A stretch of 64,000 nt of DNA. It comes from an uncultured delta proteobacterium (lineage in GTDB: Bacteria > Desulfobacterota > Binatia > UBA9968). Positions 15,978 to 46,578 of this stretch are shown here, piece by piece. The notes under the pieces are model-generated. The model was not told the origin of the DNA, did not search any database, and saw only the letters and a list, made by a program, of their open reading frames with translations. The DNA lies in the NCBI GenBank assembly GCA_963745035.1, contig CAVUVW010000026.1:32001-96000 (forward strand). The letters are read 5' to 3'. A program made the translations under genes and the position numbers. Position 1 is the stretch's first letter. Each line of letters opens with the position of its first letter.

Positions 15978-16571
15978 ATCCAGACCTCGTGGAAATCGTT
16001 CAGGCCGCTGGCGTTGCGCTCCGTCGGCAGGGCAAGGAATTTACCGGCCTGTGTCCGTTCCATGCGGACAAACATCCCAGCTTCGCCGTCAATCCCGACA
16101 AGCAGGTTTGGTTCTGCCACGCCTGCTCTGAGGGCGGCGACCCATTCGCTTTATCGAAAAATTTCATGGCGTCATGTTCAAGGAGGCGCTGGCGATTCTC
16201 GGAATCGACGGAGGGAAGAGGCCGCCGTGCTCGATGGCGCTCGATGCAAAGGCGCGAGAACTCGCAGGCTGGGTGAACGAACAGACGGCGAGGGCCGAAT
16301 ACCTGCTCCGCAAACTTGGCCAGAAAATTATCTCGCGCAGCAATGCGGAGATGCTGCCGTGCTCGACTCGTTCGAGCGCGAGTGGAGTGTGCTCGAAACT
16401 ATCGCCGAGGACCTGCAACACGAAGCGCACGCCGTCGAGATGTACGAGAGCCGCGAGGCCGTCGAGAGTGTCTTAGCAGAAGGTGTCGTTGAACCTTGGC
16501 CAGATTTCCCGCCGCTGACGCCTGAGTACCGGGCTTTCCTGCGTTCGCTCCCATACCCGGAGGTCCGATGA
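15974..16571 (+). CDS. CHC2 zinc-finger (primase N-terminal) protein, frameshifted
   Basis: GLCPFHADKHPSFAVNPDKQVWFCHAC..GGD. Confidence 0.8.
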
Positions 16572-17985
16572 GCCCCCAAACCGCGAAGCGCGCCATCGAA
16601 AAGGCAGAGCGCGCGCTTGCTGTGTTCCGTCCAAACGGATCCGCGACAAAAATCGAAGAGCCTCCGCACAACACGGACCTTGGAAGCGCGCAACGGTTCC
16701 GCCTGATGCATGGAGCTAACGTCCGCCATTCAACGCAACTCGGCTGGCTCATCTGGAACGGCAAGCGATGGGCGAGGGATACGACGCAGGAAATCGAGCG
16801 GCTGGCGCGTGAGACGGTGCGCGGCATCTATCGGGAAGCAGCGGACTGCCCGGATAAGGACGCCCGGCAATCCCTCGCAGAGTGGGCGGCGAAGTGTGAA
16901 TCGGTCCAGAAAATCAGCGCCATGCTGACGCTGGCGGAATCAGAGCCGGGAATCGCAGTCAATGCCGACATATTCGACAGGCACGAGTGGCTCATCAATC
17001 TCGCCAATGGAACGTTTGACGTCAAAGCCTGGAAGCTGCGGGACCATCAGCGCGGCGACTATCTCACAAAGATGATGCCCGTCGCATTTGACGACTAGCA
17101 GCCTCTGCCCCATGTGGGAAAAATTCGTGCTTGAGATTACCGGGGAAAATCTGGAGCTGTTCCGCTTCCTGCAAAAGGCGACCGGCTACTCCCTCATCGG
17201 CAGCACCCGCGACCAATGTTTCTTTCTCCTCTACGGCACAGGGTCAAACGGCAAATCGACTTACATCAAGACAATCAGCACCATGCTCGGCGACTATGCG
17301 GGCGCAACGCCGATGGAAAGCCTGCTCATCAAGCGCGGCGATGCTATCCGCAACGACGTTGCGCGGCTCGCCGGTCTGCGCTTCGTCTCGGCGGTCGAGA
17401 CCGAAGGCGGTCGAAGGCTCGCGGAGAGTCTCGTCAAGCAGCTCACCGGCGGCGACAAAATGACCGCGAGATTTTTGCATCATGAATTTTTCGAGTTCGA
17501 CCCGGCGTTCAAGCTTTGGCTCGCGGTGAATCACAAGCCGAAGATTGTCGGCACCGACAATGCCATCTGGCGGCGAGTGCGCCTGATTCCGTTCGAGGTG
17601 ACTATCTCGGACGCGGAGAAAGACCCGGACCTTGCCGAAAAACTCAAGGCGGAGCTGCCGGGGATTCTCAATTGGGCGCTTGAGGGACTGCAACGATGGC
17701 GACGCGAAGGACTCAAAGAGCCGGACGCGGTCAAGGCGGCGACGCGGGCCTACCGGAGCGAGATGGACGTTATCGGCAATTTTCTTGAGGACTGCTGCGA
17801 CACCGACGCGGAGGCGGAGGTCAACAAAGCGGCGCTCTACAAAGCTTATGCGGAGTGGGCGCACGAAGCGGGAGAGCGGACAGTCAGCAAGAACGACTTC
17901 GGGACAGCGATGCTGGAAGCGCGGGTTCACCGAAACGCGCAGCAAACGGGAGCGGTTTTGGGTCGGAGTGACCCTGCTGGACTAA
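16568..17985 (+). CDS. P4-family/D5-like primase-helicase (SF3), frameshifts near 17090 and 17920
   Basis: TDLGSAQRF, WLIWNGKRW, INLANG, LYGTGSNGKST, VKQLTGGD.MTARFL, NHKP...D.AIWRR. Confidence 0.9.
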
Positions 17986-17993
17986 GGGCAAAG

Positions 17994-18098
17994 GGTGACA
18001 CAGGTGACACAGGTGACACGGTTTTGGGGTTTTTTTCTATATACGCGCTCGCGTGAGAAAATATGAAAAACAGCGTCACCCTGTGTCACCGTGTCACC
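17994..18098. repeat. Iteron-type replication origin of element 1
   Basis: GGTGACAC at 17994, 18003, 18012; inverted (G/C)GTCACC-type copies at 18073, 18083, 18091; AT-rich spacer; directly after the helicase. Confidence 0.75.
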
Positions 18099-20254: not shown

Positions 20255-21764
20255 ATGAGCGTCATTCAGTTCGCCGATGAGAACATGCCGTCGAACGAGC
20301 GCGGCAAGCCGTGGAACGTTGAGCCAGCATCAGCGCACGGTGCTTGCCCGCATGTACGCGCGGCACTACTCCATCCGGCTTGGAGCGAAACAAAAAGTCG
20401 GGAAAGACTTTTCTCGCCGCTGTCATTGCGATCTGGGAGGCGGTCACGAATCCGGACAGCGAGGTAGTGTGCTGCGCCAACGATGAAGAGCAGGCGGTGA
20501 GCCGGGTTTTCGCAACCGTCTGCGCGCTCATAAGGCACAACCCCGAGCTCGCGGCGTCGGCAACGGTGCTGGCAACGCAAATCAAGTTCACGAACGGCTC
20601 TGTGATTAAAGCTGTGAGCAGCGATTACAAGGGCCAAGCGGGAGGCCGGCAGCGGCTCACGATTTTTGACGAACTTTGGGCTTACGATTCGGAGCGTGCA
20701 ACGCGGCTCTTCGAGGAAATGACACCGCCTCCAACGGAAGAAGGCGCTTACATGCTGATTGTCTCCTATGCCGGATTCACTGGCGAAGGTGAATTGCTGG
20801 AAAATCTTTACAAGCGCGGACTCAAGGGCAGACGCGTTCACAAGTCGCTCGAGTGCTACCGGGCGCAAGGCCTGTTCATATTCTGGAGCCACAAGCCCCG
20901 CATGCCGTGGCAACTCGGAGCCGAGGGGCGCGCTACTACGAAGAGCAGAAGAAAATTCTCCGCCCCGGAACGTATCTCCGCCTGCATGAAAATCGTTGGG
21001 TGAGCAGCGAGGATAGATTCATCACCGATGAAGCATGGAGCGCTTGCGTTGACCCCGACCGAACGCCTGTTCTCTGCCGACAAGCGCCTTGATGTTTTTG
21101 TCGGCCTGGATCTTGGCATCAAGCACGATAGCACCGGGCGGGTTTGCGTCGCTTACGACCGGGCGGCGAACAAAGTTGTCATCGTCTCTCATCGGCTCTG
21201 GAGGCCGGGAAGGGGCCACAGCGTTTCTCTTGCCGATGTAGAGGCGGACTTGCTGGAGTTGAGAGAGAAGTTTCGCGTGAGGAAAATTCTCTGCGACCCG
21301 TGGCAGGCACTCGGCTTGATTGAGCGGCTCAAGCACGTCTTCGGCGATGCTATCGGGGAGTTCCCGCAGAGTGTCGGGAATTTGACCGCGTGCGGCGAGA
21401 CGCTCTACGACCTCATCCGCTCGCGCAACTTGGTCGAGCTATCCGGACCCGGACTTGAGAAGCCACGTGACGGCAGCGGTAGGCGTCGAGAGCGCGAGAG
21501 GCTTTCGGCTGTCGAAGGAAACGGCGAGCCGGAAAATTGACTTGTGCGTTGCTCTCTCAATGGCCTGCGTCGGCGCTTTGCAGAATTCCAAGCCGGTAGC
21601 AAACCCGAACGCGCAACCGATCGGCGTCGGTCGCGGCATTGGTCACGACTATACGCCGGGCGTTCGGCTCAACGTTGACGCAACCGTTCCCGGAGGCTCC
21701 ACTTCGGTCCCGCTCCGGACGAAGAGCGACCCGGCAAAGGAGGGGCTTGGCTGTACGGATTTAA
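20255..21764 (+). CDS. terL: Terminase large subunit of element 1 (several frameshifts; end approximate)
   Basis: KKSGKT Walker A, TIFDELW Walker B, SYAG coupling motif, FVGLDLGIKHD, ILCDPWQ, KIDLCVALSMA. Confidence 0.85.
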
Positions 21765-21857
21765 TTTTTACACCGAGAAAGAGTGAGGAGGCGATGAACG
21801 ATTTTACAATCACCATGATAGTCGAGTACGACAAAAATCATAGGAGGTATAAGGAGG

Positions 21858-39069: not shown

Positions 39070-39699
39070 TCAAAGATACTGGGCTAACTTTGCCAATCCC
39101 TTGATGAGAATCGGATGATTCCCGAGCCCGGTGCGCTCAAGCTCTTTTGTTAGCCGCGCGACTTCTTCGGGTGTGCCGAATGATTCGAGCACCTCGCGCG
39201 CCTGGGATAGCGTCTCATCACTGTTCGCGCCGCCGAACTCCGGATCGTTTTGAAATTCCTGTTTCCAGCTCATCACTTCGTCGTAACGCTTCTCGCCGAT
39301 CTCTTGGTATTCGGCAACCTGCCGGGCAGAGTCTCCAATGGCGCGCAAATGCAGATCGGCAAAGCGCTGCATCTGCTCAGCCGTGAAACCGTGCTCACGG
39401 CCAAGCTTGGTGAAGTCGCGCATCAAACCGTCGTCGACAATGGCGCCGTCGGGAAGCTTCAAATCGTAGAGATCCGCGGCGGCGGCATCCTCGGCCAGCT
39501 TATTAAGGTAATTTTTGCCGTCGGCCTTGTCGCTCGGCTCAGCCTTCGGCGCTTCCTTCGTGTTTTCCTTGGCCGGTTCCTTCCCGTACAGCACTTCCGC
39601 TAAAGGCCGCTCTGCGCTGCCTGACTTGCTTGCCGGCGCGCTCTCCGTGGTCTGCGACGGATACAGTACATCCGCCGCGCTTCGTTCTGATGTTTCCAT
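39070..39699 (-). CDS. Podovirus-type (BPP-1/epsilon15-like) capsid scaffold-like protein
   Basis: Low-complexity N-terminus, YDLKLPDG, EQMQRFAD, W...DPEFGG, FGTP, TGLGNHP; AGGAGG RBS. Confidence 0.65.
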   Translation of the reverse strand: METSERSAADVLYPSQTTESAPASKSGSAERPLAEVLYGKEPAKENTKEAPKAEPSDKADGKNYLNKLAEDAAAADLYDLKLPDGAIVDDGLMRDFTKLGREHGFTAEQMQRFADLHLRAIGDSARQVAEYQEIGEKRYDEVMSWKQEFQNDPEFGGANSDETLSQAREVLESFGTPEEVARLTKELERTGLGNHPILIKGLAKLAQYL

Positions 39700-39953
39700 G
39701 CCTACCTCCTCGCCGGATCGTTTATCGCGTTCGGCAGCGCGCAATTCGAGTAACAGAATGACGGAAAAGTCGACGAGCCTTGGCTCCTGAACCTCGTCAT
39801 CAGACAATCGTCCTTATGCTTGCAACCCTCCGGTGGCTGCGTTCGCGGCTGCACGCCCGCAATAATTTCATCGTCACGCTTGTGCTGCTCCCGGTAGATT
39901 TCTGATTGATCCATGTTTCGTTTTCTCCTTCTTGGTTGTGGGTTAGTAATCGG

Positions 39954-40391
39954 TCACATAGCCACGAAATTTTTCGGGTAAGTGTGTGATAGCTGCGTAT
40001 CAGCCGCGATCCTCGCCGAGACCTTTCCGGCGGTCATCGGACCGGTAGTCACCGTGTAAACCAACCCGAGATAGCGCTGGATCGTACGCTCTGGAACTTG
40101 AAGCACGATTGGCGTTCGGCCTACGGCTAAATCGGCGAGAGTGAGCGTCACCCGAGCCAGAAGCGTCGGCGTATCCAGAGACTCATTATCGGCCGTCGCT
40201 GTGGCTATCTGGAGTGTTGCCGCACCGTCGGCGGTGAAGCTCTCGGTCACGATGACCACAACATCTAGTATATCGACCGCGGACCCGCGAATATTCGGTG
40301 CGACGACACCGAGGTCGATCACGTTGGTAGAGTCCCGCGTCACGGTGATTGCCGCGTTTTCATCGAAGCTATTTTGTTTGTCGAAGATCAT
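39954..40391 (-). CDS. Bbp16-like capsid cement/decoration protein
   Basis: MIFDKQNSF....AIT...DSTNVIDLG...V.VTESF...GAATL...RYLGLVYTVTTGPMTAGKVSA. Confidence 0.75.
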   Translation of the reverse strand: MIFDKQNSFDENAAITVTRDSTNVIDLGVVAPNIRGSAVDILDVVVIVTESFTADGAATLQIATATADNESLDTPTLLARVTLTLADLAVGRTPIVLQVPERTIQRYLGLVYTVTTGPMTAGKVSARIAADTQLSHTYPKNFVAM

Positions 40392-41092
40392 TTTTCCCTC
40401 TTTGGTTGTGGGTTAATAGGCGGTCGCTTCGGTTTGATACTTAGCTATGCAATCACCACCCTTCGCGATACGGGTCGTATTCGCTGACAACGTTTTCCAA
40501 TTCCCGCACCCGGGTAAAAGCCACGATTTTTGCTGGCTCAGGCGGCCGTAAACCGCACACCCAAAAGCAGTACGGGTCCATCCCAACGCGACGGTTAACT
40601 ACTCTGCCCATCGGGCACTTCTCGGCTTTGCACTCAGCCATTGAGTCTCCGCTCTTGCTCCTTGGCTCTTTCAAACGGGTCGTAGTCGGTTTGGACTTTC
40701 CCGACACCGCTAAGCCCGTGATGGTGTTGGGTGTAGAGCTGGCGGAGATACCACTCGATTGTGTTCTCAATATCCAGCGGGTTCTCCGGCGTCGGCTTCC
40801 AGATTTTATGGCTCACCAGCCACAACTTATCCGCCTCTTTATCCCACGCCACGGCAACCACGGCTGCGCAGTCATGCTTGATGCCGGCATCCACGCCGAC
40901 GAAAAGCCCGGTTGTCTTGCCGCGCTCGATTGCGGCACAGCACGCCATCGCCAGCGCAACAATGGCGTCAATTTTCTTCGATGCCTTTTCCTTCGCGATC
41001 CTCCAGCCGCGGGGATGCTCGACGGCAATCGTGCTTAGCGCCTGGCTCCGTAGATCATCGGCCGGATACATCACCAGATTGCGACCGTTGAG

Positions 41093-42519
41093 ACTTGTAT
41101 GATGGATGTCGGCTCTGAACCGGGAGTGCTCTGCTACAATGCCCGAAACGCCAAAGGCATTGTGCAAGGAGGCACTCAGCATGGGACACAAAGCGTTTAT
41201 ACCACAAGAGTACGATGTGTTTGCGGGCTTGGACGTAGATAAAAGAAGCATCTCGGTGACCTTTAGCAACCATCAGCAAGGATTTGTCCGATCGTTGCAC
41301 ATGCCGTACAGCGTGGAGCACTTGCTCAAGCACGTACGCAAGCATTATCCCGATCAGAAGGTTGCGTTTGTCTATGAAGCTGGACCGACGGGGTATGGAT
41401 TGTATGATGGGCTTTCGGCCCAGGGGTATAACTGCTTGGTGGCGGCACCTTCGATGATCCCTCGAGCTCCCGGGCAAAGAGTCAAAACCAATCGCCTCGA
41501 TAGCCGAGGGTTGTCGGAGAGCTTGCGCGGTGGACAGTTGAAGAGCATTCACGTGCCTTCGCCCATTTATCGAGAGCTTCGCCATCTCACTCAGCTGCGC
41601 GACACCTTGGTCAGTGAAGTGGCGGGGATGAAGCAGCGGATTCAATCGCTGTTGCTGTTTGAGGGGATCGCTTTCCCAGCGGCTCCCGCTGGGAGCCGCT
41701 GGTCTTTGAAAGTGAAGAGCCAACTGAGGAAACTTCAGTGCTCTAAGAGCATGCGCTTTAAACTCGATCAGTTGCTCGACAACGTGGAGTTTTCTGAGAA
41801 GCAGGTCGTGAAAGTGACCAAAGAGATTCGCAAGCTCTGTCAGAACGATCCTGAACTGGCGCAGTGCATGAAGTATATGATGAGCGTTTGTGGCATCGGC
41901 TGGATTGTGGCCAGTCAGCTCCTGGCTCGTATCGGTGATTGGCGGGAACTTAAAAACGTGCGTCAGCTGGCAGGGTTTTTGGGGCTGGTTCCGAGTGAGG
42001 ACTCTACGGGAGAGAAAACCGATCGAGGCTCGATCACCCGCACGGGACATGGCCGCCTGAGGAGTAAACTCATCCAAGCGGCCTGGTCGGCGATTCGCCA
42101 AGATGGTGAACTTCGGGAGTTTTACAGTTCGGTATGCCGCAGACACCCGCGGCATATGGGTCCGCGAGTCGCCATCGTCGCCGTGGCGCGCAAGCTCAGC
42201 ACCCGGATTGCTGCGGTGTTGATGGAACAACGGCCCTATGTGATGAGACAAAAAGTTCATTCAGCTCCTTTGACCCAAGAGGAGACATCGCCCCAGGGAA
42301 CGGCTCGACGACTTTGAGAACCGGGAGAAACAAACTCCTGACGGTTCGATCCTTGAGACAGAGATCCCGGGGCTTTGTGCCTTAGAGAGGGGCGCATTTT
42401 AAGTCAGTGTGACGGCCGGGTGCCGTGCCACGCATAGCAGCAAGTCTCTCTTGGCCGGGAAAGAAGAAGGGATAAACTAAGAGCATTCGCGGTGTAGCGA
42501 CTTGACATCCACATAGCAG
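41093..42519 (+). mobile_element. IS110-family, IS1111-type insertion sequence
   Basis: AG core at both junctions, subterminal IR TGGATGTC/GACATCCA, ~200-bp non-coding region downstream of the transposase. Confidence 0.9.
41181..42317 (+). CDS. IS110-family transposase/recombinase
   Basis: FAGLDVDK, YEAGPTG, KTNRLDS (DEDD-like), GLVPSEDSTG conserved serine. Confidence 0.95.
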   Translation: MGHKAFIPQEYDVFAGLDVDKRSISVTFSNHQQGFVRSLHMPYSVEHLLKHVRKHYPDQKVAFVYEAGPTGYGLYDGLSAQGYNCLVAAPSMIPRAPGQRVKTNRLDSRGLSESLRGGQLKSIHVPSPIYRELRHLTQLRDTLVSEVAGMKQRIQSLLLFEGIAFPAAPAGSRWSLKVKSQLRKLQCSKSMRFKLDQLLDNVEFSEKQVVKVTKEIRKLCQNDPELAQCMKYMMSVCGIGWIVASQLLARIGDWRELKNVRQLAGFLGLVPSEDSTGEKTDRGSITRTGHGRLRSKLIQAAWSAIRQDGELREFYSSVCRRHPRHMGPRVAIVAVARKLSTRIAAVLMEQRPYVMRQKVHSAPLTQEETSPQGTARRL

Positions 42520-43563
42520 CAAGTCGAAGAGAGTTTGCCCCATGAGCGTGCAGTTCGCTTGCGTCTGGGGAAATTCCTTGATCGGGATGCTGGCGTTCTT
42601 GAGCGTCGTGATCGATCTGTGCAGCTGATAGGGGTCGGCCACAATCTGCTGCACGGGGCCCGTAAAGGCCGGCAGCGGGGTACGAACGATGCACGGATCC
42701 CAAAGACTGGCGGAAATAAAAATCTCTTCCGCGCTCGCCCACTTGTTTTCGTGAAGACGGAGATACGTACCGGGGCGGAGAACGCGCTTCTGGCTCGCGT
42801 AGTAAGCTTCAGTCTGCCACGGCATGCGCGGCTCATGGTCCCAGTAGGCAAACAGCCGGGCTTCGCGATTGGCATAGATCGGCAAATCGGGATGAAGCCG
42901 CTCGCCTTGTCCCTCCGGGTGCTCATCGGGGCTCACCACCTGCTTGTAAAGATCCATGAGGAGCTCGCTCTCGCCCTCAAAGCCGGCATAGGTCCGTGAT
43001 GAACCGGATGGAATTTCTGCGGGTCGGCACCGGGGTTAACTCTTCCCATAGCCGCCGGCTGGATTCAGAGACATAGGCCCAAAGCTCGTCATAACTCACA
43101 AAGCCATGATTCGAGCCCGCGGCGCCGGCATAGTCGCCGCTGATCGCCGTCACTGTCGTACCGTTGGCCAGATAAATCGTCTTGCTCTGGACCTCGGCCT
43201 CGCGGCGCAATTCGGGATGGTGCTGAATGATGCCTTCCATCGTGCGATAGACGCGCGCCAGTGTTTGCTCAAGGTCATTTGCCAGGATTAGTATTTCGTT
43301 CGGCGCTTCCTGAGTGAATCCCCAGCCAAGCGTTATGGCGCCATTCAGCGTGGTTTTGCCGCTCTTCTTGATGCAGGAATAAAGAATCGTATCCCACGGT
43401 AGGCGGCCGTCCTGATCGAAGGCGAAGGCGAGACGGAGAACCTCCCGCTGGTGATCGCTGAGCCCGAAGGGCTGGCCAAGCTCGTTTTTCTTAACCAGCT
43501 TGTCGATAAATGTCATCGGGTGAATCAGTTTGGTCATGGCCCTTCGATCCTGTGATATAATCA

Positions 43564-44166
43564 GTGGTCACTGTGTTTGATTCTTGCCTGCATTGCGGCA
43601 GTCATAGCTTCGAGCGCTCTCATCGCAGCCGCTGGGAACGTTTGTTGAGCACCCCCATAAATGCACGCCTGTTTAGCTGCCGTGATTGCAACTCCCGCTA
43701 TTGGGTAAGTCCAAACGGCATTTGGGGACGTGGCTTTCTTCATCTTCTTTGGTTGCGGTTCATGCGCTGGTTCTCAGTTCTCTTGTGGATGGCTGTTATT
43801 TTCGTTCTTTCGACGGAACATTTTTCTTCGGCACGAACCCCTATCCCAAAGGAGCTCATGGAATTGGGCTTCGATCAATTTTTGGTTCGCAAAGTTGCTC
43901 ATTGGACCGAATACTTCATACTTGGATTCCTGTTAATGCGCGCTCTCAGCGCGAACTCCGATAAGCTCATATTCAAACGCCACATCGTTTTAAGCGTGAT
44001 CGTCGCTGCTGTTTATGCAGTGACCGATGAGTGGCATCAGTCGTTCGTCCCAAATCGGGACGCTAAAATGAGCGATGTCGCCCTCGACGCTGTGGGAGCT
44101 TGTTGCGGTACATGGTTATGGTCGCGGGTGCGAACCCTTTGTTGGATGAGTTGGATAATTCGATGA
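43564..44166 (+). CDS. VanZ-family membrane protein with N-terminal Zn ribbon
   Basis: CLHCGS...CRDC; VRKVAHWTEYFILG, YAVTDEWHQSFVPNR...DVALD. Confidence 0.85.
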   Translation: MVTVFDSCLHCGSHSFERSHRSRWERLLSTPINARLFSCRDCNSRYWVSPNGIWGRGFLHLLWLRFMRWFSVLLWMAVIFVLSTEHFSSARTPIPKELMELGFDQFLVRKVAHWTEYFILGFLLMRALSANSDKLIFKRHIVLSVIVAAVYAVTDEWHQSFVPNRDAKMSDVALDAVGACCGTWLWSRVRTLCWMSWIIR

Positions 44167-45587: not shown

Positions 45588-45790
45588 TCACCCTCTGAAA
45601 TTTCCGTTTCCATTTCCGTTTTTTTGCTCGAGCTCGGCCATCATCCGCGCGCCGAAGTCGCTGCTCATGTAGCGACCGTAGTGCTGCTCGATCATCTGCG
45701 CCGAGCTGCCGCACTGTTCTGCGATCGCCTTGATGTTCTCGCCGGCGGTAAGCGCCAAGCTGATGAACGTGTGTCTTGTGCAGTAGAGCG
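45588..45790 (-). pseudogene. C-terminal remnant of a third tyrosine integrase fused to unrelated sequence
   Basis: LYCTRHTFISLALTAGENIKAIAEQCGSSAQMIEQHYGRY next to the att site. Confidence 0.8.
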
Positions 45791-46578
45791 CTACTGAAAG
45801 ATTGTCGTTAGGCATGATGCCGACGGCGTTGAGCGCAGCACCGAAGAGGAGGAGAGCAGGGCCCAAATACACTTCCATGATTTGCTTTGCCGCTCCGTAA
45901 GACGCACCTGCTGATACAAGACGCTTGTAGTTGTCCATCCTTTGCAGAATATCTGCCAATTCCGAAAAGTTGGGTCGCCATTTGGGATGGCTATCCTGGA
46001 TTGCTGCCGCTAGGCCTCGAAGTTGTAAGATCGTATTTGCTGGGTAGCCGGTTTGGTCTACAAATACTGCCTCGTATTCGGATTCGAGTACCGTGTGCTT
46101 CATGTCCTCTGCTAAGGCCGATTCTGGATCTCTTTCAGGATCTCGTGAAGATAGGAATTTAACGTGCTGATCTGAATATAAATACCCCAGATGAATAAAG
46201 TTATAACGAATCCAAGGCCGCCAACGGGCAATGCCTGTCGTGCGGTTATTGGTTTGCTTGGATCGTAATCAATGGCAAAGCGGAAGGAAGCATTAAATGG
46301 CCGACGAAGCTAAAGACCAAAAGGTGAGTCTCGAACAGCCCATGGTAAGCACTCTCGCGATGACGGATGCGTCGCAAAGCTGCTGATCGCCAAGGGCATC
46401 ATCACGGATGCGGAGTCCAAAGCGCGTGGCAGCGCGGAAGGGGCGAACTCTCTCGCCGTGCTGAAGCGGCTGCAGTGCCCCCTTAGCTGTCTAAACCGGC
46501 TAAGCCTTCACAGCGTCGACGGGTGAATATTCGAGCCAGAGTCGCTTGCGTACCGAAGCAAGTACCGCTGTGGGCTGG

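Follow-up and report, generated by a model that had tools for sequence, protein, structure and literature searches.

A 64,000-nucleotide stretch of DNA from an uncultured delta proteobacterium (GenBank assembly GCA_963745035.1, contig CAVUVW010000026.1, positions 32,001 to 96,000), called the window below, contains two phage-like elements with a large terminase (TerL) gene each, and in the TerL of element 2 the two halves of the nuclease domain stand in swapped order. The copy in the window is dead: after the rewiring it was inactivated by a frameshift and by an insertion sequence (IS) of the IS110 family. Very likely, the window holds a dead member of a heritable HK97-type TerL lineage with a circularly permuted RNase H-like nuclease, and the lineage itself, as far as sequence comparison can tell, is most probably real and maintained by selection. 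Three-dimensional equivalence, catalytic activity and the path of origin of the permuted TerL are what we infer from this material. Proteins collected in our searches carry P numbers, the canonical genome loci L numbers.

By three-frame translation, the element 2 gene lies on the minus strand, from an ATG at 43537 to a stop at 40636-40634 (gene 43537-40634). Its chain runs ATPase, linker, segment B (beta4 to the catalytic helix), segment A (beta1-beta3-alpha1) and tail, and its parts are as follows.

42995-43537, minus strand: first part of the TerL ATPase domain, with the start codon at 43537-43535 and the Walker A motif KKSGKT; the frame is lost at its 3' end
42994, minus strand: approximate site of a one-base frameshift, a region that P0002, P0001 and P0005 read through uninterrupted (SIRFITTYAGFE)
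42655-42993, minus strand: rest of the ATPase and lid and the inter-domain linker, ending in WDPCIVRTPLPAFTGP; 69% identity to P0004 residues 181-292
42517-42654, minus strand: nuclease segment B, first part, with beta4, its Asp codon at 42636-42634 (ADPYQ) and the EFPQ motif, up to LFDLL
41093-42517, plus strand: IS110-family insertion sequence of about 1425 bp, which splits segment B between LFDLL and NGRNLV
41106-42317, plus strand: transposase gene of the IS, 403 amino acids, DEDD / IS110 type (PF01548, 2.1e-14; PF02371, 1.7e-21)
40907-41092, minus strand: nuclease segment B, second part, with the beta-hairpin region and the catalytic helix (KKIDAIVALAMA), Asp codon 40969-40967
40721-40906, minus strand: nuclease segment A, with beta1 (LFVGVDAG), beta2, beta3 and alpha1, ending in EWYLRQLYTQHH
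40634-40720, minus strand: C-terminal tail of 28 residues and the stop (40636-40634), following A at new junction 3

Segment B directly follows the linker at 42655/42654 (new junction 1), and segment A directly follows B at 40907/40906 (new junction 2), where B ends in a new loop, ERGKTTG (...AAIERGKTTG). The linker-to-B and B-to-A joins each run on in one frame. With segments of an intact homologue as tblastn queries, the ATPase and lid were placed at 43531-42995 and 42993-42658 (joint E 3e-130), B at 42654-42517 (E 1e-21) and 41092-40907 (E 2e-30), and A at 40906-40727 (E 2e-32), all on the minus strand, so that the order was N, B, B, A. The first part of the ATPase showed 77% identity to the N segment of P0004 (residues 2-180; tblastn). 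All four Asp codons, those of beta1 (40891-40889), KHD (40873-40871), beta4 and the catalytic helix, are present in the window copy, and its translation carries KKSGKT and the DELW region, the motifs of a packaging ATPase. The catalytic helix was matched by positions 259-283 of the Pfam TerL_nuclease profile; the Pfam scan of the window's own TerL fragments gave no match, and the isolated pieces of 46-62 amino acids gave nothing meaningful. An Rfam scan of 40400-43700 found no family.

The TerL of element 1 provides a canonical comparison inside the same window.

20255-21800, plus strand: element 1 TerL, canonical order, with A at 21094-21276 and B at 21277-21595

Here tblastn placed A at 21094-21207 and B at 21277-21592, in the order N, A, B, and the ATPase was matched by Pfam TerL_ATPase at 5e-7. 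This copy is a pseudogene too: it has at least three frameshifts, and its reading passes through four or more frames. A preliminary description of this DNA had claimed the order ATPase-A-B for element 1, the order B then A for element 2, and both element 2 joins in frame; three-frame translation and tblastn bear out the two orders, and the joins are in frame as said. The frameshift near 42994 and the nature of the stretch 40720-40637 after A, which is the normal tail of the family, are additions of the present analysis.

The anatomy of the rewiring was examined in P0004, an intact permuted protein, and P0006, its closest canonical relative. By BLASTP the two proteins correspond in three blocks.

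P0004 2-298 and P0006 4-300: ATPase and linker, 69% identity, E 1e-159
P0004 292-397 and P0006 358-463: block B, 80% identity, E 9e-56
P0004 396-464 and P0006 294-361: block A, 65% identity, E 1e-26

In the canonical order, the linker is followed by beta1-beta2-beta3-alpha1 (A), by beta4 to the catalytic helix (B) and by the tail, and in the permuted order by B, a short new loop, A and the tail. Three connections were exchanged: linker to beta1, alpha1 to beta4 and helix to tail became linker to beta4, helix to beta1 and alpha1 to tail. The exchanged segments are each homologous to the canonical protein and stand in one reading frame, with no part lost and no duplication (0/321 proteins). In canonical P0090 a tail comes after the catalytic helix, and the tail of P0004 aligned with it at a score of 66, reached by 0/2000 shuffles; the window's own tail shows weak similarity to canonical tails, and the tails of other pairs are too short and too diverged to reveal such a match. 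Since what comes after A is the ordinary C-terminal tail of the family, the change was from linker-A-B-tail to linker-B-A-tail. Another candidate, that the tail after A is a relic of a second beta4, was rejected on its weak scores and on the strong P0004/P0090 tail homology. The loop between B and A has the form ERGKxxG-LF in the window copy and P0001-P0005 (subclade I), and the form DYGQTxx-LF, or two residues longer, in P0009, P0035, P0141, P0270 and P0273 (subclade II). Each of the three breakpoints is preceded in P0006 by a [G/N]-[R/K] dipeptide (NGR, RNR, RGK), a pattern recorded here as a bare observation. The permuted proteins lack the canonical chain order of the nuclease fold, and the element 2 TerL lineage is a topological variant of the TerL family, not a standard member.

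The proposal of a natural circular permutation had been tied beforehand to a search for other B-then-A homologues as the test on which it could fail, and such homologues were found; they also take the place of reads across the junctions as support. A 152-residue piece from the end of B into A was searched against 5.8 billion proteins, longer proteins only, and the best 120 of the 300 matches at E <= 0.001 (among 2348 candidates) were compared with it by BLASTP. Eight of the 120, namely P0001-P0005, P0009, P0035 and P0102, covered 66-100% of the piece in one collinear alignment at 61-82% identity, six of them 89-100%; the other matches, which are canonical, covered 27-59%, that is, one segment of two. 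An exhaustive HMMER search of a representative library (best 150 of 1172 matches, E <= 0.001) added two permuted fragments, P0141 and P0263. With a profile of six permuted proteins (best 120 of 1731 matches at E <= 1e-20, among 8000 scored candidates), the top 7 of the 1731 matches were all permuted, and P0270, P0273, P0274 and P0279 were added. Segment-wise phmmer sorted the 321 collected proteins into 283 canonical, 11 permuted and 27 partial ones; three partials, P0141, P0274 and P0279, showed the permuted junction on inspection, which makes 14 permuted clusters among the 321. They show 51-94% identity, have both junctions in common, and come from different metagenome contigs of unequal size and from two sources. 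Their state is as follows.

Full-length open frames (479-491 amino acids): P0003, P0004, P0005, P0009, P0270
Ended by a contig edge: P0001, P0273, P0035, P0274
With frameshifted or degenerate stretches: P0002, P0102, P0279, P0141, P0263

These clusters bear on the view that the B-A order is a private accident of this DNA with no biological meaning, produced by misassembly or by chance rearrangement as a prophage remnant decayed. In favour of that view, a frameshift and an IS make the gene a pseudogene, the TerL of element 1 is broken as well, IS elements promote rearrangements, and the chance of two in-frame joins would be about 1/9. However, the same junctions, at the same residues, were found in 14 other clusters from other assemblies, and the divergence of these homologues excludes one chimeric template. 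Furthermore, P0002, which over 323 aligned columns shares 94% identity with the window copy, has both junctions without the IS, and the IS of the window copy lies inside B, at neither new junction. Since independent assemblies carry the same junctions, a misassembly or a private scar is an extremely improbable source of the B-A order, and a natural circular permutation is supported by the homologues, five of them with full-length open frames.

Conservation of the acidic positions was counted in a 66-row alignment of 9 permuted and 57 canonical rows. The Asp of beta1, KHD, beta4 and the catalytic helix was kept in 9/9, 9/9, 9/9 and 8/9 permuted rows, the exception being the degenerate P0002, and in 56/57, 57/57, 56/57 and 57/57 canonical rows. 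Judging from their positions and from known TerL structures, these residues are presumably the catalytic ones, and the earlier proposal that the catalytic acids are retained appears to hold for the window copy and for the permuted rows alike. The ATPase motifs are intact in the permuted proteins (alignment A3, of 9 permuted and 18 short-tailed canonical proteins). Among pairs at 72-80% ATPase identity, mean identity was 73.0% in A and 77.2% in B for permuted pairs (n = 14), and 70.5% in A and 74.0% in B for canonical pairs (n = 185); P0102, P0002 and element 1 (frameshifted) were excluded from these means. In alignment A3, identity to P0004 is 67-75% for the five full-length open frames. Since frames of 479-491 codons have stayed open at 25-33% protein divergence, neutral decay would not explain them.

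Comparison between the two forms gave a different pattern. Permuted-canonical pairs (n = 21) with 80.8% identity in the ATPase segment (N) had 59.6% in A and 69.3% in B, whereas canonical pairs (n = 97) with 82.6% in N had 78.5% in A and 81.6% in B. Two readings fit this excess divergence of the nuclease: the sequence changed faster once it had been rewired, or the domains recombined. In its ATPase part, the window copy is about 81% identical to canonical P0023, P0047 and P0072 and 73-80% identical to other permuted proteins. Such a mismatch between ATPase and nuclease identity is a hint that the two domains recombined or that change was fast once the rewiring had occurred.

The family is that of HK97-like TerL proteins (Pfam PF20441; phrog_9 and phrog_2699). 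P0004 matched phrog_9 (7e-37) and phrog_4914, and its PF20441 match (1.8e-5) was above the cut-off, with that of P0009 just below. The structure prediction that the preliminary description had called for was run on the homologue P0004 and gave a confidently predicted fold with the expected elements in swapped order. In the AlphaFold2 model (alignment A3; mean predicted local distance difference test score (pLDDT) 85.0, predicted TM-score (pTM) 0.66), the linker is followed by strand 294-299, helix 305-313, strand 318-320, helix 325-340, strand 344-346, helix 350-357, a hairpin of strands 360-364 and 367-370, and helix 381-395. Segment A then follows with strands 401-408, 413-422 and 427-436 and helix 446-460, at a block pLDDT of 84-90 over 401-460, and the tail is disordered. 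The canonical control P0006 (alignment A4; mean pLDDT 86.3, pTM 0.71) was modelled in the usual order, with strands 297-304, 311-319 and 324-333 and helix 343-357, then strand 359-365 through helix 447-462. A PDB sequence search with P0006 gave no match.

In Foldseek searches, both models had the HK97 TerL 6z6d as their best PDB match, the permuted one at E 2e-13 and the canonical one at 2e-22. The canonical model also matched isolated TerL nuclease domains, namely 5m1f (template modelling score 0.65 on the target), 2wc9, 5tge, 4dkw and 4iox, whereas none appeared for the permuted model among the matches listed (ranks to 50, E to 2.4e-3). Foldseek alignment depends on chain order, and this difference is what the permuted topology predicts with such an aligner. 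ATPase-domain structures (P74-26, T4 gp17) were among the fold matches of P0004. In BFVD its fold matches were ordinary TerLs at 8-16% identity, none obviously a permuted twin, found with an aligner unable to show one, and ESM Atlas features of P0004 residues 285-489 pointed to TerL nuclease clusters (0.95-0.96), a result that is uninformative on topology.

In the RNase H fold, beta1 and beta4 are neighbouring parallel strands. For terminases, a passage in the survey of Majorek et al. (2014, PMC3985635) describes the C-terminal helix as opposite in direction to beta1, and therefore the end of the helix should lie near the start of beta1. With beta1 and beta4 adjacent and parallel and the helix antiparallel, the three connection points would lie on one face of the domain, and for this reason the fold and its acidic metal-binding cluster could be kept. 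The three-way exchange of connections would thus be sterically simple, and a permuted TerL would cut concatemeric DNA like other TerLs. As for the path, A-B may first have been duplicated in tandem within the gene, or A copied to a place behind the helix, with in-frame loss of the redundant parts afterwards.

To place the permuted proteins, a concatenated ATPase+A+B tree of 30 rows was built with a careful search. A 22-row clade in it (support 100/99) splits into a polytomy of four groups: subclade I, which includes canonical P0006 (8 rows, 98/98); subclade II (100/100); P0016, which is canonical; and 11 other canonical rows. Such a tree requires no fewer than two label changes. When the tree was built on the nuclease alone (28 rows, excluding P0102 and P0002), P0006 again grouped with subclade I (97/93), and P0006-like proteins look like the canonical parent or sister of this subclade; no close canonical counterpart of subclade II was found among the 321 proteins.

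This topology raises the question of whether, in place of a single origin, the permutation had repeated origins or one reversion. The label changes, the place of P0006 inside subclade I, the separate long branch of subclade II (P0009, P0035, P0270, P0273, P0141) in the polytomy, and the recovery of the permuted rows as one clade in 0/200 bootstrap trees would all be expected if so. Yet both subclades share the three breakpoints within 1-2 residues and the same linker plan, and a tree with all permuted rows in one clade was not rejected by the approximately unbiased test (p = 0.245). Moreover, the position of P0006 inside rather than beside subclade I rests on branches of 86/86 and 91/74, and ATPase and nuclease give different nearest neighbours, so recombination could blur the tree. 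We consider repeated origin or reversion possible but on the whole improbable. The further step, to a living tailed-phage or satellite TerL lineage that packages DNA with the permuted nuclease and whose forms interconverted more than once (by two origins or a reversion in P0006), appears doubtful to us and is offered as speculation.

Several points weigh against a permuted lineage maintained by selection with a rewired, working nuclease. Frameshifts or degenerate stretches are carried by 5 of the 14 permuted clusters and by the window copy; it may be that decaying elements often harbour the lineage, or that the disruptions are sequencing errors. With 14 clusters, compared with 1731 or more matches, the permuted clade accounts for less than 1% of the family. 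A search of species-representative genomes, a collection without the window's own genome, gave five loci, all canonical and no permuted copy, and tblastn with the B-end-to-A piece and with P0004 detected no permuted copy in 50,697 phage records. In those records the B-end-to-A piece had no match and P0004 matched distant TerLs only, at no more than 32% identity, over the ATPase part and part of B, and no cultured phage relative was found there. The pLDDT values prove neither the packing of the P0004 model nor that the acids meet in it. Finally, duplication intermediates of the form A-B-A or B-A-B were absent (0/269 and 0/321 proteins), and the duplication-and-loss route is a textbook one, unsupported by intermediates.

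Part of this evidence would also be expected if the lineage were real and its nuclease were not a working packaging nuclease, being inert, decaying, or repurposed in a helper-dependent satellite or a domesticated element. Beside the disrupted copies, the canonical relatives stand in small elements with no recognisable portal beside TerL, and the nuclease halves of permuted-canonical pairs are more diverged than the ATPase predicts. On the other side are the near-complete retention of the acids, A and B segments as conserved within the permuted clade as in canonical pairs, the intact ATPase motifs, and five long frames open at a divergence that is hard to square with neutrality. A nuclease without a packaging role is therefore quite unlikely in our view, and a lineage maintained by selection is the reading we keep.

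The insertion in the window copy is unrelated to the permutation. It lies within B and touches neither new junction, and LFDLLNGRNLV reads on uninterrupted, with no insert, in P0002 and P0001. The IS is flanked on both sides by a 2-bp CT (minus-strand reading), and its upper end overlaps the last B codon by one base of the duplicated dinucleotide. It resembles the IS110 family in its DEDD transposase and Transposase_20 domains, in the 2-bp flanking CT and in having one long non-coding end; no long terminal inverted repeats were noticed. The IS/TerL junction at 42512-42525 is copied exactly, over 14 nt, at 42433-42446 in the 200-nt non-coding end of the IS; the copy comprises 6 nt of TerL flank, CT and 6 nt of IS end (blastn-short E 0.03), and we take it to resemble the target-binding guide of IS110-family bridge RNAs. 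RNA folding of the 3' end of the IS gave no signal (z = -0.57).

Directly downstream of the broken TerL are a Bbp16-like gene (39954-40391, minus strand; PF21190, 3e-23; phrog_427) and a phrog_458 'protease' gene (39070-39807, minus strand). No portal was recognised by the TerL or between it and these two genes in the window, the head module of element 2 looks truncated, and the TerL is not an intact gene in a packaging module. Directly upstream of the TerL start, on the opposite strand, is a gene for a VanZ-like membrane protein (43564-44166, plus strand; PF04892, 4.5e-15), and an integrase fragment lies at 45588-46103. Terminases are broken in both phage-like elements of the window, and the primase of element 1 (16568-18056) is split.

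The five canonical genome loci were found in metagenome-assembled genomes labelled delta proteobacterium, Verrucomicrobiia and Nitrospira. Their TerL genes have a primase/helicase (L001-L004), an excisionase or helix-turn-helix protein (L001, L004) and an integrase (L001) in the neighbourhood, L004 also has a protease/major-head gene, and no recognisable portal stands beside TerL in these loci. The small elements were seen at 10001-21386 of L001, at 4764-13323 of L004, and in L002 and L003, and those carrying canonical relatives may be satellite-like. An extension of about 200 amino acids after the nuclease was observed in many canonical members, among them P0023, P0042, P0047 and P0048, and in L001 (10001-12070) and L002 (615-2687).

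Large terminases are among the best-studied viral motors. To our knowledge, in the matched structures (HK97, Sf6, D6E, T4, P74-26, G20c, SPP1, P22 and herpes simplex virus pUL15) the nuclease has always been treated as one canonical RNase H-like fold. A permuted form with a close canonical sister would mean that the fold tolerates an entry point moved from beta1 to beta4, which bears on how the linker and the C-terminal tail signal between translocation and cutting. If a living lineage does package DNA with the permuted nuclease and its forms have interconverted, nature can rewire this fold by way of a duplicated intermediate with its function kept, and matched natural pairs at about 70% identity become available for relating chain topology to folding and to motor-nuclease coupling. 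Such a rare matched pair, the normal and the rewired version of one enzyme, would let models of circular permutation be tested on a natural example. There is also a practical consequence: since the Pfam match was barely above the cut-off and the Foldseek E-value nine orders worse, permuted terminases can be missed or mis-split in annotation.

Compared with HK97-type TerL (6z6d; PF03354 TerL_ATPase and PF20441 TerL_nuclease; phrog_9), the permuted proteins have the same N-terminal ASCE ATPase with Walker A and a C-terminal RNase H-like nuclease with its acidic positions conserved, but the nuclease halves are swapped. Positions 180-283 of the Pfam nuclease profile (B) fall on P0004 residues 293-393, directly after the linker, where P0006 has positions 59-118, and the phrog_9 match, unbroken to about residue 470 in canonical proteins, falls into two stretches in P0004. 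The canonical sisters (P0006, also P0016, P0023 and P0090; loci L001-L005) are 65-80% identical block by block and have the same linker, the ERGK helix end (P0006) and a homologous C-terminal tail (P0090); they differ in their A-B order, and some reach 670-690 amino acids with a C-terminal extension of about 200 that is missing from the permuted proteins.

Natural circular permutations are known from DNA methyltransferase classes, saposin/swaposin and some glucanases, with duplication followed by loss as the usual proposed route. Circularly permuted adenine methylases of phages are mentioned in a passage of PMC7824862. Full-text searches returned permuted genomes or other proteins, with no report of a permuted terminase or RNase H-like superfamily nuclease in the text they returned, and 'permut' has 0 occurrences in the main text of the superfamily survey (Majorek et al. 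2014, PMC3985635). As in the other natural permutations, the fold and the catalytic residues are the same and the chain order is changed. Unlike them, the permutation here is internal to a two-domain motor protein whose linker and tail stay put, and both forms coexist at about 70% identity. The permuted TerL is a new topological variant of a known enzyme family.

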